Counted from the first letter of the stretch, positions 10,829-58,741 are shown. The stretch is 64,000 bases of DNA from Patescibacteria group bacterium (GCA_035529435.1 DATKWS010000154.1:22064-86063), one strand, 5' to 3'. Numbers and translations: made by a program. Notes: generated from the letters alone by a model not told the origin.

Positions 10829-10889
10829 CGGGATGCGCCGCGGCTGTTATGTATTGGGGCTCGGCCCCCGTGCACCCTGCGGCTGTGAC

Positions 10890-33050: not shown

Positions 33051-33168
33051 TCGGGACACCACCGGTATCACTTCGGCGCGGCGTTCCCGGGTCCGGTGTT
33101 TCGGATATAATTCCCTTCACAAACGGATCGTATTGTGTTTTCCTTTCAATTCGGGAAGGCATCGAAAC

Positions 33169-38714: not shown

Positions 38715-38738
38715 GGAAGTACTGAACGGGGTTTCGAT

Positions 38739-39848
38739 ATGAGGCTCGAAATGTTCGACAGGGAAACGATGACTGTCTGCGTGAGCTGCGCGGACCGGCA
38801 GGATTGGGATATCCTCGACAAGCTCTCCAGCCTCATCGCGGTCTCCTCGGATTGCGGATTCAACCGGATCATATTCGAGCCGCCGTCACGCCTGCCTCTG
38901 CCGGTCGGTATGGCGCTCGAGCAGCTTGCCCGCCGTAACGGGGTCATCCTTTCCGCCGCCGATGAAAGCGCCGCCGGGGAGGCGAAGGACGAGTTCGGTT
39001 TCGTCGTGGTGAGCAGGGAGTCCAGTTTTATCTGCCTCCGTGATTCGGGCGATGATATGCATTACCAGCTCTACCTCGAGGCCTGCGAGGAGAACGTCGA
39101 TCTCGGCGCGCGTCTCGCCTACCTGCTCGCAAACGTGCTCGGTTTCACGAGCCTCATCTCGTTCGAGATTCGTTTCAGCGTGTACGAGCTCCTCAACAAC
39201 ATTTTCGAGCACGGTCTCGAGCAGGGTGCCAGCCAGTGGGTCGAATTGATCATCGAGAAAAAGCGAGATAAGCTGTCGGTTTCGCTGGTCGACAAGGGAG
39301 TCGCGTTCGATCCGACAAGGGATGAGAAATTCAACCTGGCACGGTACCTGGAATCGGGCAAGAAACGGGGGCTCGGTCTCGTCATGACACGCAGGATAGC
39401 GGGGCGGATGCAGTACCATCGGGATGGGGAATTCAACAAGATCCATTTCGAGAAATCGGATTCATTCCCCGGAGGGACTCTCCGGGCCGTAAAGGAGGAG
39501 ACAATGGCACAGTTCATAGTCGGTGAACCGGTCCGCACGGAGGACGGTTCCTCCCTCATGGCGCTCGAGGGCGATCTCGATACGAAAGGCGCTCTTGTCA
39601 TGGAGGATCTGATGTCGCAGCTCCTCGACCAGAAGATGTTCCGCGTGATCTTCGATTTCGAAAAGGTACCGTTCGTGTCAAGCGCGGGAGTGGGAATTCT
39701 TCTCGGGATCGTATCCTCGCTCCGCGAGGAGGGTGGGGAGGTTACCCTGTTGAACGTTTCGCCGAAGGTGAAGTCGGTGTTCAGGCTTCTCAATCTCGAT
39801 GACTATTTCACCATCGCCGACTCACGGGATTCGTTTGTCGAATTCTGA
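38739..39848 (+). CDS. fusion of RsbW/SpoIIAB-type serine kinase (GHKL ATPase) with C-terminal STAS anti-sigma-antagonist domain
   Basis: Central HATPase_c N-box ELLNNIFEHG and G-box GLGLVMTRR. C-terminal STAS with the phospho-acceptor region FVSSAGVGILLG. N-terminal about 110 aa of unknown function. Confidence 0.6.
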   Translation: MRLEMFDRETMTVCVSCADRQDWDILDKLSSLIAVSSDCGFNRIIFEPPSRLPLPVGMALEQLARRNGVILSAADESAAGEAKDEFGFVVVSRESSFICLRDSGDDMHYQLYLEACEENVDLGARLAYLLANVLGFTSLISFEIRFSVYELLNNIFEHGLEQGASQWVELIIEKKRDKLSVSLVDKGVAFDPTRDEKFNLARYLESGKKRGLGLVMTRRIAGRMQYHRDGEFNKIHFEKSDSFPGGTLRAVKEETMAQFIVGEPVRTEDGSSLMALEGDLDTKGALVMEDLMSQLLDQKMFRVIFDFEKVPFVSSAGVGILLGIVSSLREEGGEVTLLNVSPKVKSVFRLLNLDDYFTIADSRDSFVEF

Positions 39849-39871
39849 GAACCATCACGGAGGAATTCTGG

Positions 39872-41317
39872 ATGAGCAAGGCGCCGCCTGAACAGACGTG
39901 CCGCAGCGAACCTGATGTGAAACGGCTCGAGGAAAGTCTCGAGAAGCGGAATATCACATTCGAGGCGCTGTTCGGACTGTTCGAGAAGATCGGAACGACG
40001 CTGGACCTGGCAACGATCGTCCGGCTCTTCCTGCTCACCCTCATGGGACAACTCAGGTTGAAACGCATCGCCTTGTATCTTGCTTCCTCGGATGGAACGC
40101 GGTTCGTGATGCATCACGCGCTGGGTATCGGCCGGCAGGTGCTGCCGACGGCCTTCTGCGTGGAGCACACGCTCACGCGCTGGTTGCGGTCGGAAAAGGA
40201 CGCTCCGCATATAGACAGTTTCTTCAATGAGTACAAGGGCGAGGTGCCCGGGGAGACGGCCGGTTTTCTCGGGGAAATGGCCGGGCGAAGTTTCGCCTAT
40301 GCGTATCCCCTTACCGATCGGGATGAGTTGCTGGGAGCGGTGTTCTTCAGCGGGAAGGTGACGGGGGAGGGATTCTCACAATTCGACAACGAGCTGCTGC
40401 GGATGCTCGCCAAGGTTGCCACCATCACGATCAGGAATGCGGCACTCTACCGCTCGGCGGTGCAGTCCAAGCAGGAGCTCGAGAGGTTTTCACGGATCAA
40501 GAAGGAGTTCATCAACCACACCTCGCACGAGTTGCGGACGCCGATCACCGTTCTCAAGAGCGCACTCTGGTCGATCGAATCGGACGAGATCGATGAAGGC
40601 GTACTGATCGATATGTCCAAGGATGCCGTGCTCAGGATGCAGGACAAGATCGAACAACTGCTCTCGCTCAACGATATCGAATTGAACGCGACCGCATTCG
40701 ACCTCGCCCGGACCGATGTCTCGTCGCTGCTGGAGGAGTGCCTGCGCGAGATCATCCCCGAGCTCGAGGAGAAACAGATAACGGTCGATCTCGATGACCG
40801 CGCCCGTTACCGGGAGATCATGGTCGATGCCGCCAAGATGAAGCTCGTGCTGCGCGGTATCATCGATAACGCCGTCAATGCTGTCGAGAGGGGCGGCACC
40901 ATTTCGATCGTGACCGATGTCACGGATATCCCGCCGGGGGGCGGCGATGGGATCGAGATACCCGATTGGTCGACTGTCGCGGAGGGACCGCTTCCGTATT
41001 CCCCGTGTGATGCGGCGGACAACGAGCACGCAGGTACCGGCCCGTCACGGAACTTCACCGATTTTCATCCATCGAGCCAGGGATCGTTCCTCGTCATGCG
41101 CATGCGGGACGACGGCGTCGGTATACCGGCCGACGAGATCATGGCCGTTTCCGAGCCGTTCCGGCGGGCCTCGAATTCTCCCCTGAAAAACGTCAAGGGG
41201 CTCGGCATCGGTCTCTCCGTCGCGTTGAAGATCATCGCGGGACACGGCGGGCGGCTCTTTTGTAGAAGCGAAGAGGGAAGAGGGACGGAATTCTCTATCT
41301 GGCTGAACGCCGATTGA
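39872..41317 (+). CDS. cytoplasmic GAF-domain sensor histidine kinase (no cognate response regulator adjacent)
   Basis: GAF domain. HisKA H-box HTSHELRTPITVL. HATPase_c with an about 50-aa insertion before the G-boxes. Confidence 0.75.
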   Translation: MSKAPPEQTCRSEPDVKRLEESLEKRNITFEALFGLFEKIGTTLDLATIVRLFLLTLMGQLRLKRIALYLASSDGTRFVMHHALGIGRQVLPTAFCVEHTLTRWLRSEKDAPHIDSFFNEYKGEVPGETAGFLGEMAGRSFAYAYPLTDRDELLGAVFFSGKVTGEGFSQFDNELLRMLAKVATITIRNAALYRSAVQSKQELERFSRIKKEFINHTSHELRTPITVLKSALWSIESDEIDEGVLIDMSKDAVLRMQDKIEQLLSLNDIELNATAFDLARTDVSSLLEECLREIIPELEEKQITVDLDDRARYREIMVDAAKMKLVLRGIIDNAVNAVERGGTISIVTDVTDIPPGGGDGIEIPDWSTVAEGPLPYSPCDAADNEHAGTGPSRNFTDFHPSSQGSFLVMRMRDDGVGIPADEIMAVSEPFRRASNSPLKNVKGLGIGLSVALKIIAGHGGRLFCRSEEGRGTEFSIWLNAD

Positions 41318-43471: not shown

Positions 43472-45541
43472 TCAATCCCCGGGATGCAGGTGCTCGGCGA
43501 ACCATTCATGGAGCGTGTTCCACCACAGCTCGGCATTCAACGGCTTCAGCACGAAATGGGTTTCGTCCGGGTAGAAGAGGAGCTTTGAATAGACGCCCCT
43601 GCGCTGGAGTGCCGTGAAGAACTGGAGTCCCTCCCCGTAGGGAACGCGGTAATCGTGCTCACCGTGCACGACGAGGCACGGTGTCTTGAATGCAGCCGCG
43701 TAGTTGTGCGGTGAGAAACGTTCGTACATCTCCGGATTCTCCCACGGCGCTCCCCTGAATTCCCATTCGGGGAACCAGAGTTCCTCGGTCGCCCCGTACA
43801 TGCTCTCGAGGTTGTAGACCCCATCGTGCGAGACGAGGCAGCGAAAGCGCGTCGAGTGGCCCTCGATCCAGTTGATCATGTAGCCGCCGTACGAGGCGCC
43901 GGCCGCGGCGATGCGATCCTTGTCGATGAAGGGAAACCGCTCGATGCAGTAATCGACGCCGTTCATGATGTCGGTGTAGACGGCGCCGCCCCAGTCGCCG
44001 CTGATTGCATCCGTGAGAGCCTGTCCGTACCCCGTGCTGCCGGTGGGATTCAGCATGACGACGACGTAGCCGGGAGAGGCGAACATCTGCGCGTTCCAGC
44101 GGTAGTGGAAGTCGTCGCCGAACGCGCCCTGCGGCCCCCCATGTATGAGGAGTATCACCGGGTACTGTTTACCCTCGGTGAAGTAAGGGGGTTTTACGAG
44201 CATGCCGTGGATCGAGTCCGTGGCGCCCCGGTACCGGAACTCCTCCACCGGATTCATCTCGAGCCTGTCGAGAACTTCCTTGTTGACATCGGTGATCTGC
44301 GTGACCCGTTGCCCGCCGGCCGTAGCCCGGAAAAGGTCGACGGGACGCCTCGTGTTCTGTCTTGCAATGATCAGGTGTTTGCCGTCGAGCGTCACGCGGA
44401 CATTGGTGTCGTATCCGCCGCGAATGACGAGGCGCGCGTCATTGCCCCGGACGGTGACGGCACCGATCGAGCTCCGCCCCGTATCCTCGGTCGTGAAGTA
44501 CAGCGTGCGGTTGTCGGGGCTCCACGCGAACCTGCCGATGCTGTAATCGAAGCCTTCGGTCAGGTTCTTGCTCGCTCCGGATCTCCGGTCGTAGATCATC
44601 ATCCGGTACCGGTCCGCCTCGAAGCGGGGGGTCATCTGGGCCCGGTACGCGATGTAGCGTCCGTTCGGCGAGTAGCGCGGATTGTTGTCGTTTGAGAGAT
44701 TTGCGCCGGTGATGTTCCGCGGCTCCCCGCCGGGGATCGTCATGACGAAAAGGTCGTTATTGGTCGAGGTGGCTATGAACGAGTCGGGGTTCATCGTGTA
44801 GCACAGCTCCGTGCCGTCCGGGGAGAAGTCGTAGTCCCGCTCGCCGCCGAGAGAGATCGGCGGCACGTCGGTCATACCCCGGTTGATCTCGACGAGCGAC
44901 TCCCCCTTGGGATCGGTGAGAAAAAGATGGCTCCAGCGTCCATCGCGCCAGTGGTTCCAGTGGCGGTAGAGGAGGCGGTCGATCAGGCGGGCCTTGACCT
45001 GGCTGTTCTGGTGCCGATCCAGCTTCTCGCCGTTGCAATCCATATCGGGGCACTCGGGATATACCCGTGAAGTGAAAGCGATCCAGCGGCCGTCGGGCGA
45101 CCAGAGCGGCCCTTCGGCACCGGTCGGTACGTCGGTGACACGGCGTGCCTCGCCGCCGTCGGCCGGAATCACCCAGATCTGGGATGTGCCCTCCCTGTCC
45201 GAGATGAAGGCGAGATGCCTGCCGTCGGGCGACCAGCACGGCGAGTAATCGTTTCCGTCGCTGCGGACGAATTCCCATACATCCCCGCCCGCGGTGGGCA
45301 CGAGGTAGACGTCGGTGTTCGAAGAATTCTCCTCCTTGTCGAACCACGTTACCTGGAAAGCGGCCCACGTTCCGTCCGGGGAAATCTCGTAGCTCCCGAT
45401 CCTTCCCAGGGCGATGAGATCGTCGAACGTGATGGCGTGCGTGCCGGCGTTTTCCGCGGCCGCGGCACCGGCGCTCCTCGCGGCAGCGCCGAGACTTGTG
45501 AGAGCGAGAAGGCAGAACAGAAAGCCTGTGTGCCGTTTCAT
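43472..45541 (-). CDS. S9-family serine peptidase with N-terminal beta-propeller (prolyl oligopeptidase / acylaminoacyl peptidase-like)
   Basis: Signal peptide. TolB-like WD/propeller repeats. C-terminal alpha/beta hydrolase with GGSYGGYM nucleophile elbow, plus Asp/His downstream. Confidence 0.8.
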   Translation of the reverse strand: MKRHTGFLFCLLALTSLGAAARSAGAAAAENAGTHAITFDDLIALGRIGSYEISPDGTWAAFQVTWFDKEENSSNTDVYLVPTAGGDVWEFVRSDGNDYSPCWSPDGRHLAFISDREGTSQIWVIPADGGEARRVTDVPTGAEGPLWSPDGRWIAFTSRVYPECPDMDCNGEKLDRHQNSQVKARLIDRLLYRHWNHWRDGRWSHLFLTDPKGESLVEINRGMTDVPPISLGGERDYDFSPDGTELCYTMNPDSFIATSTNNDLFVMTIPGGEPRNITGANLSNDNNPRYSPNGRYIAYRAQMTPRFEADRYRMMIYDRRSGASKNLTEGFDYSIGRFAWSPDNRTLYFTTEDTGRSSIGAVTVRGNDARLVIRGGYDTNVRVTLDGKHLIIARQNTRRPVDLFRATAGGQRVTQITDVNKEVLDRLEMNPVEEFRYRGATDSIHGMLVKPPYFTEGKQYPVILLIHGGPQGAFGDDFHYRWNAQMFASPGYVVVMLNPTGSTGYGQALTDAISGDWGGAVYTDIMNGVDYCIERFPFIDKDRIAAAGASYGGYMINWIEGHSTRFRCLVSHDGVYNLESMYGATEELWFPEWEFRGAPWENPEMYERFSPHNYAAAFKTPCLVVHGEHDYRVPYGEGLQFFTALQRRGVYSKLLFYPDETHFVLKPLNAELWWNTLHEWFAEHLHPGD

Positions 45542-45780
45542 CGATCTTCCTCCGTGTCGGGGTGGAAGCACAATCATAGACGCGTAATGAGAGCGGTTAT
45601 GTATGCAACCCGGTAACGATCACGCGCCGATGCCGGCATTCTATTGGAATAGAACGCGCGGGGCAACGGAAAACGGGCCGGTGACGTTCCCCCGATAACC
45701 GAAGGTGACGACCGCCGGCTCGCGTGAAGCCGACGATCCCGAACGGAGTGGGCAGGCGCCGCCGCGCGGGCCCGCAAAAA

Positions 45781-45823
45781 AAAGGAGAAACGTAAACGTT
45801 TCTCCTTCCGTGGATGGGGGAAA
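45781..45823 (-). terminator. rho-independent terminator (minus strand)
   Basis: On the minus strand: GGAGAAACG-TTTA-CGTTTCTCC hairpin followed by a T8 tract. Confidence 0.45.
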
Positions 45824-46119
45824 CCCCCTCACTTCATCCTCCACCCGTAATATTCTTTTACTTAGTTAAACTAAAACCCCATCTCTTCCCTGGATCTGCC
45901 GCCTCAATTCGCCGGCACCTGACTTTTCACTGCCCCCCTGCGTGCTTCGCTTTCCACAGTGAAAGGGCTACTTTCCGATTTTATTAGACGGTCGCTTTTC
46001 ACAATTTGACATCGCACAGTGCATTTAATAGGTAATTATACCTATATTACTATACGTTAATATTCACTAATTTCATATTTTAATAGAGGTTGCTGGAAAA
46101 TGGCGGATCACGATTTTTT

Positions 46120-49068
46120 TTAAGGCGCTTGAGTGGGTGCACTCTGGTCTGATCGTGCGGCGCAACGTTCGACGCCGGGATCGAATCTTCCACAGCAGAT
46201 GAGGGGCGCCCATAAGTGAATATTATCAAAGGTATTACCGGAAGCACGGCTCTTCTCTATCATCTCTCTCTGCATGGCGCAGAGCGCCGCAGTGGCCGAT
46301 GACGCGCCGCCCCACAACTTTTCATAGAACGATGTTACGGCCCTCTCGGCGGCGGCATCCTCTATCGGCCACAGCGAACCGACTACCATGTGTGCGCCGG
46401 AGCGGACGAACGCCCCCGCCAGTCCCGAACCCGCCTGAGCGTACTGTGTGCCGCCCCCGACCGATTCGCACGCCGCAAGAAAGACGAGCCGAACATGCGA
46501 CAGATCGAGCCTCAGAATTTCTTGTTCATCGAGAAGAGCGCCCGAGAGCTCTCTCTCGCCGGTGATCTCCCCGGAAGGTGAGAGGAGGAGGGCCGTTTTT
46601 CCGCTGTGCAGGGGGTAGTGTATGGAGTGTGATGAGATGTGTACCAGGTCGGAACGCTCGATACGGGCGAGTAACGCCTGCCTGGTTGCCCCCGTCCCCT
46701 GGAGCACCGTGCCGTTCTCGAAGAATTGTTGCAGCCGGACAAGCTCCCTTCCGGCGTAATGGAGGGAATCGAGGCGGGGGTAGATCCTGCGCGCGAGATC
46801 GGGAATGACGGCATTGCCGACAATGAGCGGTGCCCGGAAACGCGGTGCGGCCGTCCCGCCGGATTCGCCGGGAGCAGCCACGGGTTCATACTGTGGATCG
46901 GCGGTGCCGGGCACCGCACGGGTGGTCTTCCCACTGCCGGTGTGCAGATCGAGCAGGCTGGGGGAGACGAATATCGTTTTGGATTCCAGGAGAAACCGGT
47001 CCGAGCCGCGAGCCGCCAGGGCGCCGAACGGCAGAAGACGGAGGACGCCGTCGGGGATAAAGCAGAGTATCTCGGCGGATTCGACGAGGGGCGCGAGCGG
47101 CTCGATCAGAAAGCCGTAGAGACGGGATGTAATCCCGGCGATACGGTCCCGGTTCAGGCCGGGTCCGGAATGTCGATCGCTGACGGACGGCCCGCACTGC
47201 TCGATGAACGCGCGCACCTCCCGGTCGAGCGTCACGCTCTCCACGGCGACGCACCGGTGCGTGGCGCCGTTCCTGTTCAACGCCACGAGTATCAACCGGT
47301 CCGGCGTGATCGTGGTTTGGACGATGAGGGCGCACTCCGGAATCCATGCCCGGTCCGCAATGCATGACCTGATGGAATCGTCGAGGGCCATGGATGGGAC
47401 GGACCGGCCGCAGGGATCAGCGTGCCGCGACCGCTCGGCCCAGAAGAGAACGGAATCGGCCCCATGCGATGTCTCGCTGTCGAGACGTATAAGGTCGTCA
47501 TAGATCGAATCGACCAGTTGCACGAGGAAGTGCCTGTTTTCCACGTGCGGTTTCCGCAACGATTCCTCCTCGAAGAGGGCAATGGCGCCTGCGAGAATCT
47601 TTCGGCCGTCGTTCCGGTTCCCCCGGCTGATCTTTGTTTTTCCGAGGAGCCGGCACGATTCGATTTGCTGCATCCAGTAATTTTCCTCGATCGCCAGGCG
47701 CACGGCCTCATCGAGGAGTTCCTCGGCCTGTCGGTAGCGATGCTGCTCGAAGTGGAGACGGGCCATCGCCGTCGTGTATTCGGCCACCCGGCGGTTCTCC
47801 CGAAGCCTGTGTGAGACGGCCAATGCACGTTCGTAACAGGAAAGTGCCTCCTCGGTCTTTCCCGCCGCCGCGTATGTATCGCCGAGCTGTTTCTCCAACT
47901 CGGCGATGTAGTGTTGATCGATGCCGCGCTGTGCGATCGACAGCGCTTTTTCCATTTTGGCGATCGCCTCGCCGAGGTTTCCCGCCGCGCGCTGGATACG
48001 GGAAAGGAGTGCGAGTCCCGATGCAAGGTACTGCTCCGTCGCGTGCGTAACGTAGATGCCGGTCTCGGGTGAGTCGCCGCTCAGCAGTTCCTCGGCGAGA
48101 AGCGTCGATTTCTCCGCGATGCCGGCGGCGCGGTTCGTTTCGCCGAAGCTGTTGAGTAACCGCGCGAGTGTGAGATTTCGAGAGATGGAGCAATTCGGAT
48201 CACAGGCGTGTTCGCTGCAGCGGCAGGCCTGCACGAGCAGGGATTCCGCTTCGACGGTGAATCCTTCGGTGCCGCGGAGGCAGCCGAGAAACGAGAGGGC
48301 CCGGCTCAGGTAGTAGGGGTCCCCGCATCGCTCTGCGTTCGAGAGGCTCAACCGGTAGGCCGCGTCCGCAGCCTCGAAATTCCCCTTCCGCACGTGATAG
48401 GCGCCGATCCGGCCCGAGATGTAACTCACACTTGGCAGGTGCTCGGTATCCCTGTACGTATCGAGGGCCTCCTCGAGGCAGCGCACCCCCTCGGGATCGC
48501 GCCCCGAGGCGAAATAGTAATCGGCGAGCGTTTCGAGCCCTTTGCCGGTCCACCGGCCGCATCCGGCGTCTTCAAGGGCCGCGATGCTCTCCCGGAGGAC
48601 CGTCTCTATCTCCTCGGCCCGGTCGAGCTCATCGTAGATTCTGTCATGGCACCGCACAATGCACCTGCGCGCCGCCGTGTACGCGCTCAATTTCCGCTCG
48701 TCATCGAGGAGGTCTGCGATCAGGAGGGAAAAGTGACGCGAGTGGAACGCCGAATCGAGCAGGTAGGCGATTTTCCCGGCCTCCACGGCGCAGTAGGCGA
48801 AGGTCCCCTGCGCACCGCGTTCATGCGCCTCGAGAAGAAGGTTGAATTGCGGGCTCAGTGCTTTCTCGCTCCAGATGAAGCCGCTTTTTTCGAAGAGTGC
48901 CACGGCGGCGTCATCGCTCAAGAGCTGGGCCGGAATCCCTGATACTTTCACGTACTCGAGGTTGTACATCTCGCCGTCTCCGGGCGCGGGGGCGAGGTGC
49001 ACCGCTGCGCTGATGATGATGTAGGCGAGCGCCGCGTACGCCGGGATATGATAGCGAACTGGTTTCAT
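46120..49068 (-). CDS. TPR-repeat protein with C-terminal CHAT (caspase-like) domain, membrane-anchored
   Basis: N-terminal TM helix. Many TPR-like repeats. C-terminal CHAT with the His/Cys dyad region (VHISSHSIHYP… and LVFLAACESVGG). Confidence 0.7.
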   Translation of the reverse strand: MKPVRYHIPAYAALAYIIISAAVHLAPAPGDGEMYNLEYVKVSGIPAQLLSDDAAVALFEKSGFIWSEKALSPQFNLLLEAHERGAQGTFAYCAVEAGKIAYLLDSAFHSRHFSLLIADLLDDERKLSAYTAARRCIVRCHDRIYDELDRAEEIETVLRESIAALEDAGCGRWTGKGLETLADYYFASGRDPEGVRCLEEALDTYRDTEHLPSVSYISGRIGAYHVRKGNFEAADAAYRLSLSNAERCGDPYYLSRALSFLGCLRGTEGFTVEAESLLVQACRCSEHACDPNCSISRNLTLARLLNSFGETNRAAGIAEKSTLLAEELLSGDSPETGIYVTHATEQYLASGLALLSRIQRAAGNLGEAIAKMEKALSIAQRGIDQHYIAELEKQLGDTYAAAGKTEEALSCYERALAVSHRLRENRRVAEYTTAMARLHFEQHRYRQAEELLDEAVRLAIEENYWMQQIESCRLLGKTKISRGNRNDGRKILAGAIALFEEESLRKPHVENRHFLVQLVDSIYDDLIRLDSETSHGADSVLFWAERSRHADPCGRSVPSMALDDSIRSCIADRAWIPECALIVQTTITPDRLILVALNRNGATHRCVAVESVTLDREVRAFIEQCGPSVSDRHSGPGLNRDRIAGITSRLYGFLIEPLAPLVESAEILCFIPDGVLRLLPFGALAARGSDRFLLESKTIFVSPSLLDLHTGSGKTTRAVPGTADPQYEPVAAPGESGGTAAPRFRAPLIVGNAVIPDLARRIYPRLDSLHYAGRELVRLQQFFENGTVLQGTGATRQALLARIERSDLVHISSHSIHYPLHSGKTALLLSPSGEITGERELSGALLDEQEILRLDLSHVRLVFLAACESVGGGTQYAQAGSGLAGAFVRSGAHMVVGSLWPIEDAAAERAVTSFYEKLWGGASSATAALCAMQREMIEKSRASGNTFDNIHLWAPLICCGRFDPGVERCAARSDQSAPTQAP

Positions 49069-49122
49069 GTCCGGTCCCCGTTCGCTGTATACTATAGCAG
49101 AAAAATACAATAATAATAATGA

Positions 49123-50040
49123 TTATTCTTTAATGAGAGCCCGCGCCTTCTCTGCCCATGGAGAGGTTGGATCCCTGTGGATGTACGATTCGAGATACCG
49201 GTTCGCCTCGGCCGTTTTCCCGGTCGCATGGTATATGATTCCGAGGTTGTAATAGGCCTCGGGAGGTACATGTTCACGTTGTGCAGCATCGATCAGGCGG
49301 ATCAGCGCCAGATCGGTTCTCCCCAGCCTGTACGATACCACAGCGAGATCGTTGTACGAGCGGCCGTCATCCGGCGCCAGGAGTGCGGCCCGTCGGTATG
49401 CCACTTCGGCCCTGTCGAACCGGTTCATGGCGAAATGCAGATGCCCGAGGAGCTGGTGGACTTCCGGATTGCGGGGATATCGCCGAATGAGCTGTTTCAG
49501 TGTGCCTTCGAGTCGTTCGAACCGGCGGTAATCACCCGCTGGATTTCCGCGAATCGCGACCGGTGTTCCGCCCGGTCTGTCCCGCCCGCCGGTGAGGCGC
49601 AGCTCGCCGATCTGTGCGGCTGATAGGACCGTGTCGATCTCCGTCCGGGCCGCCCGCAACTCGGGATCCCAGGCAGGGGAGAGCATGAGGAGGCTCAGAA
49701 CGAAGATCATTGCTATCGAAGTTGCTAGTGCAGAATAGGTTACGGTCGCATGCCACACCCGCGCAAGGAACGGCGCACGAGGAGGGGATTGGCGCGCCGC
49801 CTCAGTAATGCCGGATCTATCTTGCTGCGCGAGCGGTTCCCGCCGAGCGGTACACTGGAGGGCCGGATCCGGCAAGAAGGTCCCGGTCATCTCGTCGAGT
49901 TCCCCCTTTGCGTTGAACAGGGTTGCCAGGCAGCGGGGACAATCCGCAACATGCTTCTCGTACGCCCGGCGTTCCTCATCCGTGAGGCGCCTGTCGAGAT
50001 ATGCCGCGAGCCATTCCTCGTTATTACAGAATTCCTTCAT
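49123..50040 (-). CDS. anti-sigma factor (zf-HC2 N-terminus, single TM, periplasmic TPR domain)
   Basis: HxxxCxxC motif EKHVADCPRC at N-terminus. TM helix. TPR repeats. Immediately downstream of the ECF sigma factor. Confidence 0.6.
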   Translation of the reverse strand: MKEFCNNEEWLAAYLDRRLTDEERRAYEKHVADCPRCLATLFNAKGELDEMTGTFLPDPALQCTARREPLAQQDRSGITEAARQSPPRAPFLARVWHATVTYSALATSIAMIFVLSLLMLSPAWDPELRAARTEIDTVLSAAQIGELRLTGGRDRPGGTPVAIRGNPAGDYRRFERLEGTLKQLIRRYPRNPEVHQLLGHLHFAMNRFDRAEVAYRRAALLAPDDGRSYNDLAVVSYRLGRTDLALIRLIDAAQREHVPPEAYYNLGIIYHATGKTAEANRYLESYIHRDPTSPWAEKARALIKE

Positions 50041-50148
50041 GGCGATTATCGATTAACTCGTTTCCGAGCTTCCCCTTAGTTCATTATAGATTAGACGACA
50101 ATTTTTCGTGTTTCCGCGGTCTATTTGTTAATAGTATGTCAGTTTTTT

Positions 50149-51063
50149 TCAGTGAAACGGATGACCGTGGCCGTCCGGCGGTGTGTTCCACATATCTTCC
50201 CACGAGTGCAGTTCCATGAGGTTCTGCACGATTCCCTGGTAAATTTCCAGTGGTATGCCGGTCTCCAGCAACATCGCTTTCAGCTGCGCGAACAGCTTTT
50301 CGAGGCGCCGGTAGACCAATTGCTCGTTTCCGAGATCGAGCACCTCGCAGATCCTCCTGGCGCTCGCCTTGTGCTCGAACCGGAGCTGGAGAATGATCTG
50401 GTCGCGGTGCGGCAGATGGAGGAGGGCATCGCGGAGGTTCTGCAGCGCCTCGCGGAACAGATCGCTCTCCATGAGAATATCCGGAACCGGTTGCGTACGG
50501 CGTTCCAGTGGCACATGATCACTCGAGGTGTAAGCGGTGCCGTTCAGTGGAACGTTCCGTACTATTGAGGGAGCGAGCAGTTTCTCGATGAGCTTGCCGA
50601 GCCTGCGCTCCCGCGCCGTTTGGATTATGCGCTCCTCGCATTCGATCAGATCGAGGTAGGAGATATGATCTCCCATCTCGGCACGGAGCCCCGCGAGCAC
50701 CTCGTGGATCGGGAGTGCCTGGATGAATGCCAGCTTGAAGTAGCGCCGGTCGACCGGGAGAAGCCCTCCGAGGGCCGTCAGTACGTGCCGGATCCCCTTC
50801 GAGCTTCTGAAATAGTCCCGGCAGTGATTCACCGTTACGATGAACAGCCACGTCGAGAGCGTCGATCTGCCGTTGAACTTGGCGAGCTTTTCGTTTTTGA
50901 GCTTTTCCAGAAGCGAAACGTACAGGTCGCGCGCGATTTCATCGTCATTCACGTACCTGCCGATGATGCTCTGCATGTTATCGGTATAGGTTTCGATGAA
51001 CCGATGCCATGCCGCAATATCGCCGGCCATGATCTTTCTTACGAGATCGAGATCGACCTTCAT
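50149..51063 (-). CDS. ECF-type sigma-70 factor with long sigma2-sigma4 linker and C-terminal extension
   Basis: Region 2 STLSTWLFIVTVNHCRDYFR. Region 4 HTH ASARRICEVLDLGNEQLVYRRLEKLFAQLK. About 300 aa, versus about 190 for a minimal ECF sigma. Confidence 0.6.
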   Translation of the reverse strand: MKVDLDLVRKIMAGDIAAWHRFIETYTDNMQSIIGRYVNDDEIARDLYVSLLEKLKNEKLAKFNGRSTLSTWLFIVTVNHCRDYFRSSKGIRHVLTALGGLLPVDRRYFKLAFIQALPIHEVLAGLRAEMGDHISYLDLIECEERIIQTARERRLGKLIEKLLAPSIVRNVPLNGTAYTSSDHVPLERRTQPVPDILMESDLFREALQNLRDALLHLPHRDQIILQLRFEHKASARRICEVLDLGNEQLVYRRLEKLFAQLKAMLLETGIPLEIYQGIVQNLMELHSWEDMWNTPPDGHGHPFH

Positions 51064-51195
51064 GCTATAATTATAATTGAAAATCGATGGATAGCAACCG
51101 ATAACCCCGGCCGGCGGCAAGGACACTACTCCGTGAGGAAACAGGTGCGCACCGGGAGTGCCGCTTCGCCGGCGGGACGATCTTGTGGTGTGGAT

Positions 51196-52980: not shown

Positions 52981-53091
52981 TTCTCCAACGACGCTGTCAA
53001 TGCTTGCGGAATCGGCTTGAATCGATCATTATCAGTATCGACGAGTTGAACGAGAACAATGTTCTGTGTCATCCCTTCGAGGGGGATTTTC

Positions 53092-54960
53092 ATGAGTAAC
53101 GTTTTTTCGGGCTTGTACCAGGAAAAGAAACGGTCTCCCGACGATCTGGTGAAACTGATACGTCCCGGGAGCAGGATATTTATCGGATCGGGCGCGGCCG
53201 AGCCGCAGACCCTGATCAAGGTGTTGATCGAGAAGGGCAAGTATATCGAAGATCACGAGACGATCAACCTGCTCGAACTGGGTACGACCCCGTACGCCGA
53301 ATCGGTGCTCAGCAAACCGTTTCACAAGAACGCATTCTTTATAGGGCAGAATGTCCGTGACGATGTAAACGAGGGGAGGGCAGAGTACACGCCGATCTTT
53401 CTCTCCGAGCTGCCGTCGTTGATACGGTCGGGGCGTCTCAAGATCGATGTGGCGCTGATACAGGTGGCCCCCCCCGATAACTACGGTTTCTGCTCACTCG
53501 GCGTATCGGTCGACATCGTGAAGGCCGGGGCCGAGAGCGCGCGGCTCGTCATAGCGGAGGTCAACAAGCAGATGCCCCGCACACTCGGGGACTGCTTCGT
53601 TCACCTCAAGGACATCGATTACATAGTCGAGAGCGACACGCCCCTCGTCATGTGGTCGCCGCCCAAGCCGGACGAGGTTTCAGATCGTATCGGCCGGAAT
53701 GTGGCGCGCCTCATCGGCGACGGCGCGACGATCCAGGCGGGAATCGGCATGATTCCGAACGCGATCCTTTCCCACCTGCACGACAAGCACGATCTCGGCA
53801 TCCACACGGAGATGTTCTCGGACGGGATTATCGATCTCGTCGAGAGCGGGGTTGTCACGAACAGCAAGAAGTCGATCCACAACGGCAAGATCATCGCCAC
53901 CTTTTGCATGGGGACGCAGCGTCTCTACGATTTCGTCGACGACAACCCGCTGATAGAATTCCACGCGTGCGATTACACCAACGATCCGTTCATCATCTCG
54001 CAGAACAACAAGATGATTTCGATCAACGCGGCTATCCAGGTCGATCTCACCGGGCAGGTCTGCGCCGATTCAATCGGCGAGTACTTCTACGCGGGGATCG
54101 GGGGACAGGTCGATTTCGTGCGCGGCGCGGCCCGGTCCAAGGGGGGCAAGCCGATCATCGTGCTTCCCTCGACGGCGAAGCACGGCACGGTATCGCGTAT
54201 CGCCCCCTACCTGGACCAGGGTGCCGGCGTCGTGACCTCGCGGGGGGATGTTCACTACGTGGCGACCGAACACGGGATCGCCAATCTCCACGGGCGCAAC
54301 CTCATGGAGCGCGCCCTCGCTCTCATCAGCATCGCGCACCCCGATTTCCGCAATGAGCTGCTGAACTATGCCAAGCAGCGGCGTATCGTGCATGTGGACC
54401 AGATGCCGCTCGCGGGCGCGGGCCGGTTCTACCCGGAGAAATACGAGCATACGGTCGTCTTCGGCGATGTAGAGGTTTTCTTCAGACCCGTCAAGCCGAC
54501 CGACGAGGCGCTCGACCGGGCGTTTTTCTATTCGCTGAGCGACGAATCGATCTACTACCGCTTCTTCAACATCGTCAAATCGATGCCGCACGAGAAGATC
54601 CAGCCGTTCGTGAACATCGATTACCGCGAGGAGATGGCGATCGTGGGGTTTCTCGGCGAGCCGGGGGACGAGGAGATCATAGCGATCGGTCGTTTCAAGA
54701 ACGATCCCGCAGACAACGAGGCCGAGGTGGCGTTTCTCGTGGGGGACGACTGGCAGAACCGCGGGATCGGCACGCACCTGATGCGGAAATTGATCGAGAT
54801 AGCGTGCGATATGGGGATCGAGGGATTCAAGGCGGAGGTGCTCGCCGATAACAAGAAGATGCTGCACGTATTTCACAAGGTCGGCTACCCGATTCACAGC
54901 AAACTCGAGGCAGGATCGTACTTCATCCGTATCGTATTCTCCGAGGGAGGCGCGAAGTGA
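53092..54960 (+). CDS. acetyl-CoA hydrolase/CoA-transferase family domain fused to C-terminal GNAT acetyltransferase
   Basis: N-terminal about 460 aa with GIGxxPNA and GGQVDF CoA-transferase signatures. C-terminal GNAT motif A (QNRGIGTHLMRKLIE). Confidence 0.7.
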   Translation: MSNVFSGLYQEKKRSPDDLVKLIRPGSRIFIGSGAAEPQTLIKVLIEKGKYIEDHETINLLELGTTPYAESVLSKPFHKNAFFIGQNVRDDVNEGRAEYTPIFLSELPSLIRSGRLKIDVALIQVAPPDNYGFCSLGVSVDIVKAGAESARLVIAEVNKQMPRTLGDCFVHLKDIDYIVESDTPLVMWSPPKPDEVSDRIGRNVARLIGDGATIQAGIGMIPNAILSHLHDKHDLGIHTEMFSDGIIDLVESGVVTNSKKSIHNGKIIATFCMGTQRLYDFVDDNPLIEFHACDYTNDPFIISQNNKMISINAAIQVDLTGQVCADSIGEYFYAGIGGQVDFVRGAARSKGGKPIIVLPSTAKHGTVSRIAPYLDQGAGVVTSRGDVHYVATEHGIANLHGRNLMERALALISIAHPDFRNELLNYAKQRRIVHVDQMPLAGAGRFYPEKYEHTVVFGDVEVFFRPVKPTDEALDRAFFYSLSDESIYYRFFNIVKSMPHEKIQPFVNIDYREEMAIVGFLGEPGDEEIIAIGRFKNDPADNEAEVAFLVGDDWQNRGIGTHLMRKLIEIACDMGIEGFKAEVLADNKKMLHVFHKVGYPIHSKLEAGSYFIRIVFSEGGAK

Positions 54961-56102
54961 CGGAGACAACGGGTGTCACCGCCGTATTCGTCAATGCTCC
55001 GCGGCTCGGCGAGTTTCAATTCAGCCCTGATCATCCCTTCAAACCGGAGCGCATATCCCGGGTCTACCGTATGTGCCGGGAGCGGGGCCTGTTCTCCGGT
55101 CCCGGTGTGCGGGTCGATGAAGTGCGTGAGGCCGATCCCGGCGTCCTCGAGCGTTTTCACACACCGGCGTATATTGCGGCGCTGAAACGGGCCGACGGGG
55201 GCGATGATGTCGATCTCGACATGCTCCATCACGGTATCGGATCGATGGAGAATCCGGTCTTCCGGGGAATTCTCGAGTTCTCGACCCTCTCCGCCACGGC
55301 GAGCCGCCGAGCGGCACGGATCGTCCTCGAGGGGGCGGAGAGCGCCTTCAATCCCTGCGGCGGATTTCACCATGCTCATCCCGACCGTGCGTCGGGTTTC
55401 TGCTATGTCAACGATGTCGCGATCGCAATCGGGGAGCTGCGGGAGGCGGGCAGGCGCGTGGCCTATGTAGACATCGACGCGCATCACGGCGATGCGGTAC
55501 AGGAGGCCTTCTACGGCGACGCGTCCGTTCTCACCGTATCGATGCACGAGACGGGAAAAACGCTCTTTCCCTGGGGCGGATTCGAACGCGAGATCGGGGA
55601 GGGGAGCGGCAGGGGATTCAATATAAATATTCCCCTCGAACCCGGCACCGACGACGAGATCTTCATGCTCCTCTTCAGGGAAATCACACTGGAAGCCCTG
55701 CACCTCTTCCGGCCGGATGTCGTCGTGGGTCAGTTCGGGACCGATATGCTCGCAACCGATCCCCTCACACACCTCAAGCTCACCAACAACGGCTATATCG
55801 AGGCGGTGGAGTTGCTCCACAGGCATTTCCCCCGCATCGTCGCGCTCGGCGGCGGCGGATACCGGATGGAGGATGTCGTCAAGGGATGGACGCTGGTGTG
55901 GGCGGAGCTTGCCGGTATCCGGCTCGATGAGGGGTACGGTGGAGCGCTGGGGGGAGTCCTGCTTGGAGATTCGTCGATCCAGGGATCGGATCTCCGCGAC
56001 ATGCGGCTCTACACCACGGGACCGGTCAAGGAGAATCTCGTCGCTCAGGCCGAACGGCTCATCGCGCATTTTCGCGAAACGATAAAACCCCTTCTGTCGT
56101 AG
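54957..56102 (+). CDS. acuC: histone-deacetylase-family protein (AcuC/AphA-type lysine deacetylase)
   Basis: Zn/active-site motifs GFHHAHPDRASGFCYVND, DIDAHHGDAV and MHETGKTLFP. GTGA start overlaps the upstream gene. Confidence 0.8.
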   Translation: MTETTGVTAVFVNAPRLGEFQFSPDHPFKPERISRVYRMCRERGLFSGPGVRVDEVREADPGVLERFHTPAYIAALKRADGGDDVDLDMLHHGIGSMENPVFRGILEFSTLSATASRRAARIVLEGAESAFNPCGGFHHAHPDRASGFCYVNDVAIAIGELREAGRRVAYVDIDAHHGDAVQEAFYGDASVLTVSMHETGKTLFPWGGFEREIGEGSGRGFNINIPLEPGTDDEIFMLLFREITLEALHLFRPDVVVGQFGTDMLATDPLTHLKLTNNGYIEAVELLHRHFPRIVALGGGGYRMEDVVKGWTLVWAELAGIRLDEGYGGALGGVLLGDSSIQGSDLRDMRLYTTGPVKENLVAQAERLIAHFRETIKPLLS

Positions 56103-56314
56103 CATGATCCGATAGCACTTGCCGGAGCACGGACCGTTTGCACGACCGTACGTCCCGTGGACGGACCGGCGCGCGTGGAATTCTCCGGGTGCCGAAGAAA
56201 GTATTTGAATGTACGTATCCAACGTCTTATGTTACTTCACGTCATATCGATACCGCGTGCGCGATTGATCGCGCCGCACGGGAATGCCGTGGGAGAAACC
56301 GTTTGAGCGTCGGA

Positions 56315-58741
56315 ATGGAATTCATAGAGGCGGAACTGAACGCCCTGATCGATGCCATACGTGAATCGGGCGGCTCGCGGGAAATCGAACGTGCGCTGCA
56401 AGAAGCGGTCGAGTCGGTCCATTACGGGAAGGTCCCGGATGAGGACGGGCTGATCGAGTTGATCCGCAATGTCATCGGCATCTCCAAGCCGTCGATACTC
56501 TCCCGGGGCTGGGAGGAGACCTGGGGCAACCTCTTCTCGCATCTCATTCAGATCATACAGAGTGGCGAGCGTGGAACTGAACGGGTGATCTCGTACCTGT
56601 ACGGGAACGCCGTTCTCCCCGATACGGTGAGGGATGAGCGTATTCTGTGCGTGAATCCCGGTTCGACATCGACGAAGCTGGCGCTGTTCCGGGGGCTCAT
56701 GCGCGAGGCGACCGCCGAGGTGCATATTCCACCCGATTTCGACGACAGTGTCGAGAGCCGCTGCGAGGCGATCATCCAGTGGGTGGAACAGCGGGGCATC
56801 GCGCCCGGCGGGCTGACCGGCATCTCGTGCCGGGGCGGTTTCGTTCTTCCCGTACCGACGGGCACCTACAAGGTGTGCAGCGAAATGGTGGAGGATCTCT
56901 CCGAGCCCCGCATCCAGCACGCATCGAACATGGCAATCCCGATCGGCCTGCGGCTCAAGGAACGGTTTGGAAACGGCGGCAATCTTCTCATCACCACGAC
57001 CGATCCCGTCGCATCCGACGAGATGGAAACCGGGGTGCGGCTCACCGGCATCCTGAGGATTCTCCGCGATGGGTCGGGTGCTCACTACCTCAGTCATCAG
57101 GCGGTTCATCGTCTCACCTGCTCGATCATCGGGTGCGAGCCGGACCGGTTCACGAGTATCAGCGCCCATCTGGGCGGCGGGATATCGATCGTCAGGCACA
57201 TGGACGGGATCATCGGCGATCTCGTGAATGCATTCGCCGGCATTCCGAGTGCGAACCGTTCCGGGAACATACCCCTCGACTGCCTCATGGAGGCGATCGA
57301 TCGGGGCGAGATAAGTTTTCACGAGCTGAAGAAGTACCTCTACCGCGAGGGCGGATTGATAAATCTGACCGGTACGAACGATTTCCGCGCCCTGCTGCAT
57401 TTCAGGGATACCGGCGCCGTCGAGCGGCAGCGGAAAAAGATAGAGCTGGTTGTCGATTTTCTCGCGGCAAACATCGCGAGCTCGGTGATGAAGCTCGCGG
57501 CGGTCGAGGGAGCGATCGACGTCGTTGTTCTCACGGGAGGCCTCTCGCGGAGCTCCGAGTTCACCGGCCGTATAAAGCGCAAGGTTTTTCCCTACTTTCC
57601 CGTTGTCGTGATACCCGGTTCGATCGAGCATGAATCGATGGTGGCCGGTCATCTCCGCGCCCGGTACACTCGCGGTGAGATGAAGGATTACCGGATCGAG
57701 CGCGACCGGCTCAGGCGGCGGCGGATGGAGGAGCGGGAACTCCTCGAGACGGAGATTTTCCCGCATCCGCACCTGCGCAGGCGCGAGAGCGCCCCGATCA
57801 CGAGCCTCGACGAGCTGGTGTACATGTCCCGCTCGCTCGTGGCCAAGTATCGCGCTCCGCGGGTCGCGATCGTCGGGGCCGAGAACGAGGATGCGGTGGT
57901 GGCGGCCAAACAGGCCAATGAGGAGGGTCGGTATCCGGTCGCCAAGTTTCTCCTCGTCGGTGACTATTACGAGGTCAACAAGCTGGCGTGGGAGTACGAT
58001 ATCACGGTCGACGGCGATAACTACACGATCGTCGACTCCGATGACCCGGTTGCACGGGCCGTCGAGCTGCTCGATGCGGGGGAGGCGGACCTTCTCATGA
58101 AGGGGAGGGTCAAGACGGCCGAAATCATGGGGGGAGCCCTTCACTATCTCAAGGCAAGCAAACGCCTCAAGAAGGACCGCATCTACAGCCATGTCGGTAT
58201 CTTCCAAATACCCAATTATCCCAAGCTTCTCATGGTGACCGACGCGGCGCTGATACCGAGCCCCACGGAGAAGATGAAGGCGAAGATCCTTGAAAACGCG
58301 CTGACGGTCTGCGGGTATCTGAATATCACGAAACCGAAGGTCGCGGTCATCTCCGCGGTCGAGACGATGAATCCGAGCGTCGAATCATCGATGCTGGCCG
58401 GCGAGTTCGCCGCCCGGTACCGGGACCGGACCGACTGCATCATCGAAGGTCCCCTCTCGCTCGATGTGGCGATGGATCCACGTTCCGCGCACGAGAAGAA
58501 ATATGCCGGGCAGATCAAGGGGAACGCCGATGTGCTGCTCATGCCCGACATAGAGGCCGGCAATGTCGTCTACAAGTCGCTCACCGTTTCTTCGGGCGCG
58601 TACCTCGCAGGGGCCATCATGGGGGCGGGTATCCCGATCATCCTGACATCGCGCGGGGACTCGGCGCGATCGAAACTCGCCTCGATCTGTCTCGCATGTC
58701 TCATTGCACTGAAGCAGGGGGATTTGCCCCTGGTCGAGTGA
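56315..58741 (+). CDS. fusion protein: N-terminal about 100-aa domain + butyrate-kinase-like acyl kinase + phosphate butyryl/acetyl-transferase
   Basis: ASKHA-fold kinase motif ILCVNPGSTSTKLALF. C-terminal Ptb/Pta fold (ISAVETMNP, GPLSLDVAMD, ADVLLMPDIEAGNVVYK). Confidence 0.7.
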   Translation: MEFIEAELNALIDAIRESGGSREIERALQEAVESVHYGKVPDEDGLIELIRNVIGISKPSILSRGWEETWGNLFSHLIQIIQSGERGTERVISYLYGNAVLPDTVRDERILCVNPGSTSTKLALFRGLMREATAEVHIPPDFDDSVESRCEAIIQWVEQRGIAPGGLTGISCRGGFVLPVPTGTYKVCSEMVEDLSEPRIQHASNMAIPIGLRLKERFGNGGNLLITTTDPVASDEMETGVRLTGILRILRDGSGAHYLSHQAVHRLTCSIIGCEPDRFTSISAHLGGGISIVRHMDGIIGDLVNAFAGIPSANRSGNIPLDCLMEAIDRGEISFHELKKYLYREGGLINLTGTNDFRALLHFRDTGAVERQRKKIELVVDFLAANIASSVMKLAAVEGAIDVVVLTGGLSRSSEFTGRIKRKVFPYFPVVVIPGSIEHESMVAGHLRARYTRGEMKDYRIERDRLRRRRMEERELLETEIFPHPHLRRRESAPITSLDELVYMSRSLVAKYRAPRVAIVGAENEDAVVAAKQANEEGRYPVAKFLLVGDYYEVNKLAWEYDITVDGDNYTIVDSDDPVARAVELLDAGEADLLMKGRVKTAEIMGGALHYLKASKRLKKDRIYSHVGIFQIPNYPKLLMVTDAALIPSPTEKMKAKILENALTVCGYLNITKPKVAVISAVETMNPSVESSMLAGEFAARYRDRTDCIIEGPLSLDVAMDPRSAHEKKYAGQIKGNADVLLMPDIEAGNVVYKSLTVSSGAYLAGAIMGAGIPIILTSRGDSARSKLASICLACLIALKQGDLPLVE

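Follow-up and report, generated by a model that had tools for sequence, protein, structure and literature searches.

Gene organization at the locus

The window analyzed here is a 64,000-nucleotide (nt) stretch of DNA deposited as Patescibacteria group bacterium (GCA_035529435.1, DATKWS010000154.1:22064-86063). Its positions 46120 to 51063 hold three consecutive minus-strand genes, which encode an extracytoplasmic function (ECF)-like sigma factor, a zinc-finger anti-sigma factor and a large TPR protein ending in a caspase-like CHAT protease domain. An initial annotation had described this gene order and had suggested that the CHAT protease could cut the anti-sigma factor in place of the usual proteases. 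All three open reading frames are present, their identities agree with the Pfam and NCBIfam matches, and the anti-sigma and CHAT genes lie 54 nt apart.

50149-51063, minus strand: ECF-like sigma gene, 304 amino acids (aa); open reading frame with Pfam/NCBIfam matches
49123-50040, minus strand: anti-sigma gene, 305 aa; Pfam zf-HC2 and TPR matches
46120-49068, minus strand: TPR-CHAT protease gene, 982 aa from ATG; Pfam CHAT match

The triad is conserved around close and distant sigma factors

The three-gene arrangement is far beyond chance. Related loci compared with the window carry labels of the form L001, and the order sigma, anti-sigma, TPR-CHAT recurs in 10 independent Krumholzibacteriota-type loci, namely L001, L002, L003, L026/27, L028, L029, L030, L031, L037 and L039 (the last two found by a metagenome scan), where the sigmas are 42-84% identical to that of the window. 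Every related locus of sufficient length keeps this order, save one deletion variant seen in two samples (L024 9019-9640 and L025 3272-3893; sigma 72% identical to the window's). In this variant the anti-sigma is a 56-aa zinc-finger stub, its transmembrane (TM)/TPR part and the whole CHAT gene having been lost together, and the sigma gene, both ECF-type promoters and the downstream RNA described below are still kept. In L029 the anti-sigma and CHAT genes are separated by an additional 266-aa gene (10435-11235), for which no Pfam match is on record.

The ~300-aa sigma homologs come from metagenome-assembled genomes (MAGs) labelled Candidatus Krumholzibacteriota, as are all of the named related loci. 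The contig of the window is 60% GC, and the database protein identical to its CHAT protein (HUV36936.1) is labelled Patescibacteria group bacterium; this Patescibacteria label is probably a binning or taxonomy error.

A metagenome scan extended the comparison to distant ECF relatives whose identity is 23-39% and most of which lie on high-GC contigs. The same gene order is found in 10 of these distant-sigma loci (L043, L073, L075, L082, L083, L090, L099, L105, L106 and L113), and L042 and L062 match it as far as their contigs extend. The distant triads comprise a zf-HC2 anti-sigma of 190-270 aa with one TM helix and an exported or lipoprotein TPR-CHAT protein of 960-1130 aa. Their anti-sigmas carry a different small conserved outer domain, which shows no TPR pattern in the alignment and looks beta-rich. 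Sixteen metagenome loci extend 3.8 kb or more past the sigma gene, and 11 of these encode a CHAT domain on the same strand. Co-occurrence, whose absence in other genomes the initial annotation had named as refuting its idea, is therefore seen both with sigmas 42-84% identical and with far more remote ECF sigmas. In the distant loci the CHAT gene is often followed by another lipoprotein gene.

Could the adjacency be incidental, with three unrelated neighbors sitting in a syntenic core region? The neighborhood is syntenic in the phylum and metabolic in content (radical SAM, glutaredoxin, an FTR-like gene, an S9 peptidase and PhzF), and linkage could partly reflect vertical inheritance. This explanation is already contradicted, however, by the same gene order around distant sigmas on unrelated high-GC metagenome contigs with different flanks, and further by a promoter motif common to the unit and by the existence of a fused homolog, DdvA, both discussed below. 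We regard it as extremely improbable.

A three-domain ECF-like sigma factor

The sigma protein, the start of which is fixed by a 99%-identical 304-aa database protein, matches Sigma70_r2 at residues 23-89 and region 4 at ~204-264 in Pfam, and it scores 58.7 bits against the general ECF model TIGR02937 (cut-off 42.9). The name ECF sigma given in the initial annotation holds to that extent. The protein has an extra middle domain and a length of ~300 aa and is no textbook ECF sigma. The AlphaFold2 (AF2) model (mean predicted local distance difference test, pLDDT, 72) and the alignment divide it as follows.

Residues ~1-97: sigma-2
Residues ~100-160: three-helix domain
Residues 164-198: disordered linker of 35 residues
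Residues 200-266: sigma-4, followed by a C-terminal helix

ECF sigmas have a short linker and no third domain, whereas sigma-2 and sigma-4 are here separated by ~110 residues. All 24 aligned homologs are ~300 aa long and the middle domain is conserved among family members. What is this middle domain? Weak Sigma70_r4_2 matches occur in 4 of 11 members (Pfam), and a duplicated sigma-4 was considered and rejected when hhalign against the family's own sigma-4 proved non-significant (probability 0.6%). A profile search of the PDB with the middle domain returned no match, and no NCBIfam equivalog scored above its cut-off for the sigma. The best PDB sequence matches of sigma-2 are AlgU and RpoE, which are ECF sigmas, and those of sigma-4 (residues ~194-266) are of the FliA/WhiG type, which belongs to group 3; a fold search with the complete sigma model could not tell ECF and group 3 sigmas apart. 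With its ECF-like sigma-2, FliA/WhiG-like sigma-4 and extra domain, the protein resembles an intermediate between the group 3 and group 4 sigmas.

An exhaustive profile search gave 80 representative clusters at E <=1e-30, and most of the best 150 listed matches are 265-300 aa long and contiguous across the three sigma parts (~140 representative clusters). Judged from sequence, three-domain ECF-like sigmas form a sizeable family. The soil locus L043 encodes a 267-aa sigma of the same three-part layout, also within a triad, and the shorter relatives (~190-220 aa) in soil-type triads have the canonical ECF layout. As is expected of an ECF sigma, a cognate anti-sigma gene is the neighbor, with a zf-HC2 gene directly downstream in all loci. 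The main text of the ECF reclassification paper mentions neither CHAT nor TPR.

The sigma gene is preceded by a housekeeping-type promoter, TTGCTA-N16-TATAAT.

51070-51097, minus strand: housekeeping (sigma-70)-type promoter of the sigma gene; consensus scan, 10/12 matches

The -10 box ends 7 nt before the ATG and there is no Shine-Dalgarno sequence. A perfect TATAAT stands upstream of the sigma gene in eight of the first nine orthologous loci, mostly ending 6-8 nt before the start codon, and because of this spacing a leaderless sigma mRNA is predicted for the window and most loci. A near-consensus TTGnnn-N16-18-TATAAT also precedes the sigma gene in L001, L002, L024, L026, L028, L030 and L031. 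Other relatives have a leader, which in L040 carries the Shine-Dalgarno-like sequence GGGGTGG. The sigma gene is thus predicted to be constitutive rather than autoregulated.

A single-pass anti-sigma factor with a conserved juxtamembrane segment

Pfam places zf-HC2 at residues 9-37 of the anti-sigma and TPRs at 180-303. The zinc motif consists of C5 and H30-x3-C34-x2-C37, in which H30, C34 and C37 are invariant among 11 orthologs and C5 is present in most. The protein thus has the features of a single-pass zinc-binding anti-sigma (ZAS) factor, H-x3-C-x2-C followed by one TM helix. A single hydrophobic span was found in 10 of 10 orthologs examined (103-121 in the window). The zinc-finger domain has to be on the cytoplasmic side, where the sigma is, which puts the TPR domain outside the membrane, and the hydropathy profile bears out the membrane anti-sigma with a periplasmic TPR domain that the initial annotation had described. 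When a profile of the anti-sigma was compared with the PDB, TPR matches prevailed and nothing was learned about the ZAS domain. Pfam, alignment and hydropathy give the following layout.

N-terminal part: cytoplasmic zinc domain
Residues 103-121: TM helix
Residues ~124-166: juxtamembrane segment
Residues ~175-305: periplasmic TPR domain

The juxtamembrane segment reads WDPELR...LRLTGGR...IRG in the window, and its consensus in orthologs is WDP[DE]..R, LRL.GGR and a nearly invariant Arg164-Gly. Of the nearly invariant periplasmic positions of the anti-sigma, three (P126, L149 and R164) fall within this segment, which, directly following the TM helix, is the obvious candidate substrate region for CHAT.

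An exported TPR-CHAT protein with an invariant His-Cys dyad

The CHAT reading frame can be extended to a TTG at 49110; the ATG start is backed by an identical 982-aa database protein, P0041 (HUV36936.1). Pfam finds CHAT (PF12770) at residues 648-960 (E 5e-45) and TPR families at ~340-475. Combining Pfam, AF2 and hydropathy yields three parts.

Residues 8-26: N-terminal signal peptide/anchor
Residues ~124-550: helical/TPR superhelix
Residues ~580-960: CHAT domain

The catalytic-type residues are His814, in HISSH, and Cys867, in LAACES. Both are invariant in six orthologs that are just 31-37% identical to the window protein, and they remain so when 34 further CHAT-TPR proteins, most of them distant, are aligned. 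Loss of this dyad, which would have spoken against a protease, was therefore not observed, and the invariance argues for retained catalysis. Word-indexed protein searches were swamped by TPR proteins and missed the 31-37% identical orthologs, which were taken from the loci instead.

The single hydrophobic segment of TPR-CHAT is at the extreme N-terminus in seven of seven orthologs examined, and the N-terminus of distant relatives is often lipoprotein-signal-like. Because the N-terminus resembles a signal peptide or anchor, TPR-CHAT is placed outside the membrane. Of the initial description as a 980-aa membrane-anchored protein, the size stands (982 aa). The protein can safely be called exported; membrane-anchored is too strong a term for a protein whose only hydrophobic segment, in every ortholog, is the N-terminal one. 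Residues 713-737 of the CHAT domain form a low-confidence Pro/Gly/Ala-rich loop insert that is absent or shorter in most orthologs and may be a flexible regulatory or self-processing loop.

The AF2 model of TPR-CHAT, predicted from an alignment of distant CHAT-TPR proteins, has a pLDDT of 81 and a predicted template modeling score of 0.78. A PDB-wide fold search with this model returned DdvA first (8rw5 and 8rot; E ~3e-15; ~980 aligned columns), then Csx29 of Craspase and separase. The orthologs, compared with the PDB as a sequence profile, likewise matched the dyad region of DdvA (E 2.4e-9), DdvA being the sole CHAT-containing match. Sequence comparison came as far as DdvA only through this profile; the CHAT protein searched as a single sequence against the PDB matched TPR proteins alone.

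A split version of the DdvS/DdvA system

DdvA of M. xanthus is a single protein in which a CHCC zinc anti-sigma domain is joined through one TM helix to a ~900-residue periplasmic TPR-CHAT region (PMC11506125). Its authors proposed in 2024, in a model stated as unproven, that CHAT cuts the linker of the neighboring protomer as a site-1 protease and that RseP acts next; RseP is required in this model and the signal was not identified by the authors (PMC11506125; PMC6061681). The DdvS/DdvA pair and the present locus share a CHCC-type zinc anti-sigma domain, a single TM helix, a large periplasmic TPR-CHAT region with a His-Cys dyad, and ECF-type AA...CGT promoter logic, and the proposal of a CHAT site-1 cut followed by RseP can be applied to both. 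They differ in that DdvA is one polypeptide, whereas all loci of the present type encode two, in the window an anti-sigma of 305 aa with a small TPR domain and a TPR-CHAT protein of 982 aa that brings an export signal of its own, such that any cleavage would necessarily occur in trans between two gene products. Moreover, the sigma here has an extra domain and a housekeeping-type promoter, and an ECF-type promoter stands between the sigma and anti-sigma genes. The host belongs to a different phylum, the module lies in a syntenic core region instead of beside a CBASS/CRISPR island, and the sole local target besides the operon is a small RNA. DdvA-like fused proteins were found by the authors in Myxococcota and one Comamonas alone (PMC11506125). 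The locus is best described as a split DdvA, that is, a two-polypeptide version of DdvS/DdvA. In turn, the fused DdvA provides a Rosetta-stone argument that the separate anti-sigma and TPR-CHAT act together.

This comparison bears on two claims of the initial annotation. It had called the route noncanonical, and the route is not wholly new, since the connection between ECF sigmas and TPR-CHAT and the site-1 hypothesis are already published for DdvA (PMC11506125). It had also let CHAT stand in for the site-2 protease, a role that has to be dropped because an exported protease cannot make the intramembrane cut and could act at most at site 1. For four features we found nothing in the literature searched, namely the split architecture with its broad occurrence, the three-domain type of sigma, the ECF-type promoter inside the operon and the RNA attached to it.

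Does TPR-CHAT act as a protease at all? One alternative is that it is a non-proteolytic sensor or shield, which would bind the anti-sigma TPR domain in the style of RseB on RseA and gate another protease, the dyad then serving self-processing or nothing. TPR interaction modules are present on both proteins and on the same side of the membrane. The bulky TPR-CHAT region of DdvA blocks RseP, its removal suffices for degradation, and DdvA dyad mutants have no phenotype in the tested conditions (PMC11506125). What argues against a purely structural role is the invariance of His814 and Cys867 both in orthologs 31-37% identical and in diverse CHAT-TPR proteins, and we consider a non-proteolytic TPR-CHAT quite unlikely.

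The second class of fold match is also linked to a sigma factor. In Craspase, the type III-E Cas7-11/Csx29 complex, the TPR-CHAT protein cleaves Csx30, which binds the ECF sigma RpoE (PMC10028731). The likeness is that a TPR-CHAT protease acts, or here would act, on a protein that controls an ECF-type sigma. Craspase works in the cytoplasm, is guided by RNA and is bound to Cas7-11, whereas the present locus has no CRISPR gene nearby, its protease is exported and the protein presumed to be cut is a ZAS anti-sigma of the membrane.

ECF anti-sigmas are classically removed by regulated intramembrane proteolysis, as in the RseA/DegS/RseP system of E. coli and RsiW/PrsW/RasP of B. subtilis (summarized in PMC11506125). 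The anti-sigma described here resembles RseA and RsiW as a single-pass protein with a cytoplasmic sigma-binding domain, in which an outer cut is presumed to license the intramembrane cut. The site-1 enzyme would differ, being here an operon-encoded clan-CD cysteine protease and there a serine protease or metalloprotease encoded elsewhere.

Two predicted ECF-type promoters at fixed positions

A motif of the form G[GT][GC]AAAA-N13-CGTCTAA, with the -35 variants GGGAAAA and GTCAAA, occurs at two fixed places per locus, namely the sigma/anti-sigma spacer (P1) and just after the CHAT gene (P2). In the window, P1 is GGAAAC...CGTCTAA and P2 is GTCAAA-N14-CGTCTAA.

50091-50117, minus strand: predicted ECF-type promoter P1, in the sigma/anti-sigma spacer; motif, 26.4 bits
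45984-46010, minus strand: predicted ECF-type promoter P2, after the CHAT gene; motif, 30.0 bits
46028-46045, no strand: perfect 18-bp palindrome ATAGGTATAATTACCTAT; alignments with L001 and L024

P1 is found in all 11 of the first loci and in five held-out loci, and P2, after the CHAT gene or the truncated anti-sigma gene, in all nine of the first loci and in the held-out L039. A weight matrix trained on 20 sites, none of them from the held-out loci (n=5), was run over the 64-kb window and identified these two sites alone (C of CGTC at 45990 for P2 and at 50097 for P1). The next-best site scores 14.3 bits, 0.24 matches are expected in shuffled sequence at the lowest training score, and no other gene in the 64 kb has the motif. 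AA and CGT are hallmarks of ECF promoters (PMC6061681), and the motif carries the corresponding AAC-like -35 and CGT-like -10 elements. The variants GGGAAAA and GTCAAA are interchangeable between the two promoter positions across loci, and the occurrence of either variant at either place argues for one sigma reading both. We infer that this sigma would recognize P1 and P2.

The palindrome ATAGGTATAATTACCTAT, ~20 nt upstream of the P2 -35 element, is kept in the window and L001 and has one change in L024, whereas loci at a greater distance lack it. Its role may be that of an operator or of an alternative -10 box.

A CHAT gene behind a predicted sigma-dependent promoter invites a second alternative, in which TPR-CHAT would be an output of the system, a periplasmic protease that the sigma induces along with the anti-sigma and that would act on other envelope proteins by processing or degradation. 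Inactivation of the anti-sigma would then fall to a conventional site-1 protease or to the zinc/thiol center of the anti-sigma itself. The position of the gene downstream of the predicted P1 fits this idea, the complete C-H-C-C zinc motif of the anti-sigma could itself sense redox stress, related TPR-CHAT proteins without sigma neighbors exist, and an S9/PD40 peptidase gene adjoins the module in several loci. An output gene would, however, not be expected to stay beside the anti-sigma gene when the sigmas are 23-39% identical and the anti-sigma outer domains differ, its fusion to the anti-sigma, as in DdvA (PMC11506125), would be unexpected too, and the promoter motif precedes no other gene in 64 kb. 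On balance a pure output role seems unlikely.

A candidate small RNA downstream of the CHAT gene

The rho-independent terminator that the initial annotation had placed about 300 bp downstream is real and consists of GGAGAAACG-TTTA-CGTTTCTCC followed by T8, 315-344 nt below the CHAT stop codon. It is not simply the end of the operon. It belongs to a separate small RNA unit with a conserved promoter of its own.

45776-45977, minus strand: candidate small RNA, ~200 nt; DNA conservation, start predicted to within a few nt
45805-45776, minus strand: intrinsic terminator of the small RNA; hairpin and T8

All nine of the first loci, the deletion variant included, have the unit, which consists of P2, ~150-215 nt of sequence and an intrinsic terminator. 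Over the ~330 nt from the CHAT stop to the terminator, the window and L001 have a mean DNA column identity of 74%, and in the same comparison the flanking anti-sigma and CHAT proteins are 62-64% identical. The element is detected by nhmmer in L001, L024, L026 and L028. The RNA units have the following coordinates.

Window, 45776-46010 (minus strand)
L001, 8742-8975
L002, 9780-9963
L024, 9290-9530
L026, 12879-13122
L028, 13065-13270
L029, 14410-14601
L030, 8575-8822
L031, 12910-13120
L039, 11950-12140

The RNA contains a conserved GAGAUGGGG box, a GGGGG/CCCCC hairpin and the intrinsic terminator, the stem of which shows compensatory changes. The 8-mer GAGATGGG occurs in 7 of 10 RNA regions, usually ~105 nt past the -10 box and followed by the G/C hairpin and then the terminator; there are 7 copies in 2.3 kb of RNA regions and 10 in 399 kb elsewhere. 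With nine RNA regions aligned by MAFFT, RNAalifold recovered the terminator alone, the 5' halves being too divergent to align, and single-sequence folds gave modest z-scores of -1.9 and -2.2. Rfam searches of the whole window, and permissive ones (E up to 10) of 45700-46150, found no family, whether at the gathering threshold or at the looser cut-off, and just terminator look-alikes, and a scan for tRNA and tmRNA found none.

A leader of the S9 peptidase gene was considered and rejected, as the next gene is convergent in L002, L024, L028, L029 and L030. The unit is kept whether the next gene is co-directional or convergent, which marks it as a stand-alone gene and not a leader. A conserved small open reading frame was likewise rejected, since the peptides from the conserved ATG, read by eye, vary in length and sequence between loci. 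The ~200-nt RNA is thus probably non-coding, and analogy with sigmaE-dependent small RNAs makes it the likely local output of the sigma system.

Small RNAs controlled by an envelope sigma are familiar from the sigmaE-dependent MicA, RybB and MicL of enterobacteria. Like these, the present RNA would be a stand-alone gene with an ECF-type promoter and an intrinsic terminator, and a predicted direct output of an envelope sigma. It has no sequence or Rfam relationship to them and differs in being attached to the sigma operon in every locus.

Proposed mechanism and its weighing

We hypothesize that the locus is a conserved envelope-signaling module in which site-1 cleavage in trans by TPR-CHAT frees the sigma, which then drives the anti-sigma and CHAT genes and the RNA; we put the probability of this reading at roughly 0.45. 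The sigma would be made constitutively from its housekeeping-type promoter, and the single-pass anti-sigma, through its zinc-binding N-terminal domain, would tether the sigma to the membrane. TPR-CHAT would be exported to the periplasm, the same side as the anti-sigma TPR domain. Upon a periplasmic signal, CHAT, through His814 and Cys867, would act as a dedicated trans site-1 protease and cut the outer side of the anti-sigma, most likely in the juxtamembrane segment. An RseP-type membrane site-2 protease and cytoplasmic proteases would finish the anti-sigma and free the sigma. Free sigma would read P1, ahead of the anti-sigma and CHAT genes, in a feedback or reset loop, and would read P2 to produce the ~200-nt RNA downstream of CHAT as a local output. 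Cleavage of the anti-sigma by CHAT is suggested by gene linkage, topology and the conserved dyad, the subsequent site-2 step by analogy with RseP-dependent systems, and the role of the RNA by analogy with sigmaE-dependent small RNAs.

Several observations weigh against this reading. Dyad mutants of DdvA behaved like wild type in the tested conditions (PMC11506125). No site-2 protease (M50) gene lies within the 64-kb window. The joint loss seen in L024 is one contiguous deletion and is weak evidence for coupling. Use of P1 and P2 by the sigma is deduced from position and motif; unlike in typical autoregulated ECF operons, the sigma gene is not behind an ECF-type motif, and the CHAT gene is behind a putative sigma-dependent promoter, a position that an output role fits equally well. 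In addition, three distant TPR-CHAT homologs, picked by protease similarity, have no sigma neighbor, and by this evidence CHAT-TPR proteins do other jobs too. Taken with the triad around distant sigmas, these three homologs indicate that the link belongs to the sigma clade and not to CHAT proteins generally.

Neighboring genes and other features of the window

No CRISPR, CBASS or other defense genes were found in the neighborhood, and there are no cas genes in the window or the related loci. PADLOC made no defense-system assignment and gave a weak BovA match alone (E 3e-4).

An exported S9 peptidase with PD40 beta-propeller repeats (window 43472-45577, minus strand) follows the module in the window, L026 and L031, and in other loci the S9 peptidase comes after a convergent ABC transporter. 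A PD40-repeat lipoprotein gene follows CHAT in two soil-type loci (L083 4578-6515 and L090 8403-9674). The S9/PD40 gene may be a recurrent fourth partner or a coincidence.

Two further groups of genes are found on the plus strand of the window.

33133-34167 and 37161-41317, plus strand: two SpoIIE-type phosphatases (one with HAMP), a HATPase_c_2-STAS fusion and a histidine kinase, resembling a partner-switching system
53059-58741, plus strand: an acetyl-CoA hydrolase/transferase-GNAT acetyltransferase fusion, a histone-deacetylase-family protein and an 867-aa acetate kinase/phosphotransacetylase fusion; the block is syntenic with the sigma locus in L026, L029 and L031

Implications

DdvA is a dimeric membrane protein that is at once the protease and the presumed substrate, and self-cleavage has so far been out of reach of a test. 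Here the protease and substrate are separate soluble-domain proteins, and cleavage could be assayed with two purified fragments and a dyad mutant. For specialists, the locus adds a sizeable family of three-domain ECF-like sigmas and a sigma operon with an apparent small-RNA local output, in a phylum known from metagenomes alone. A broader proposition, which we advance tentatively and regard as doubtful, is that free periplasmic TPR-CHAT proteins, encoded within the operon, form a widespread class of dedicated site-1 proteases for zinc-finger anti-sigmas, and that in Krumholzibacteriota such a protease controls a three-domain sigma with a trans-acting small RNA as its principal direct output. 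The triad is found around many distant ECF sigmas from metagenomes, and if the cleavage proves true, it would represent a general, caspase-like route of ECF sigma activation on the outer side of the membrane.

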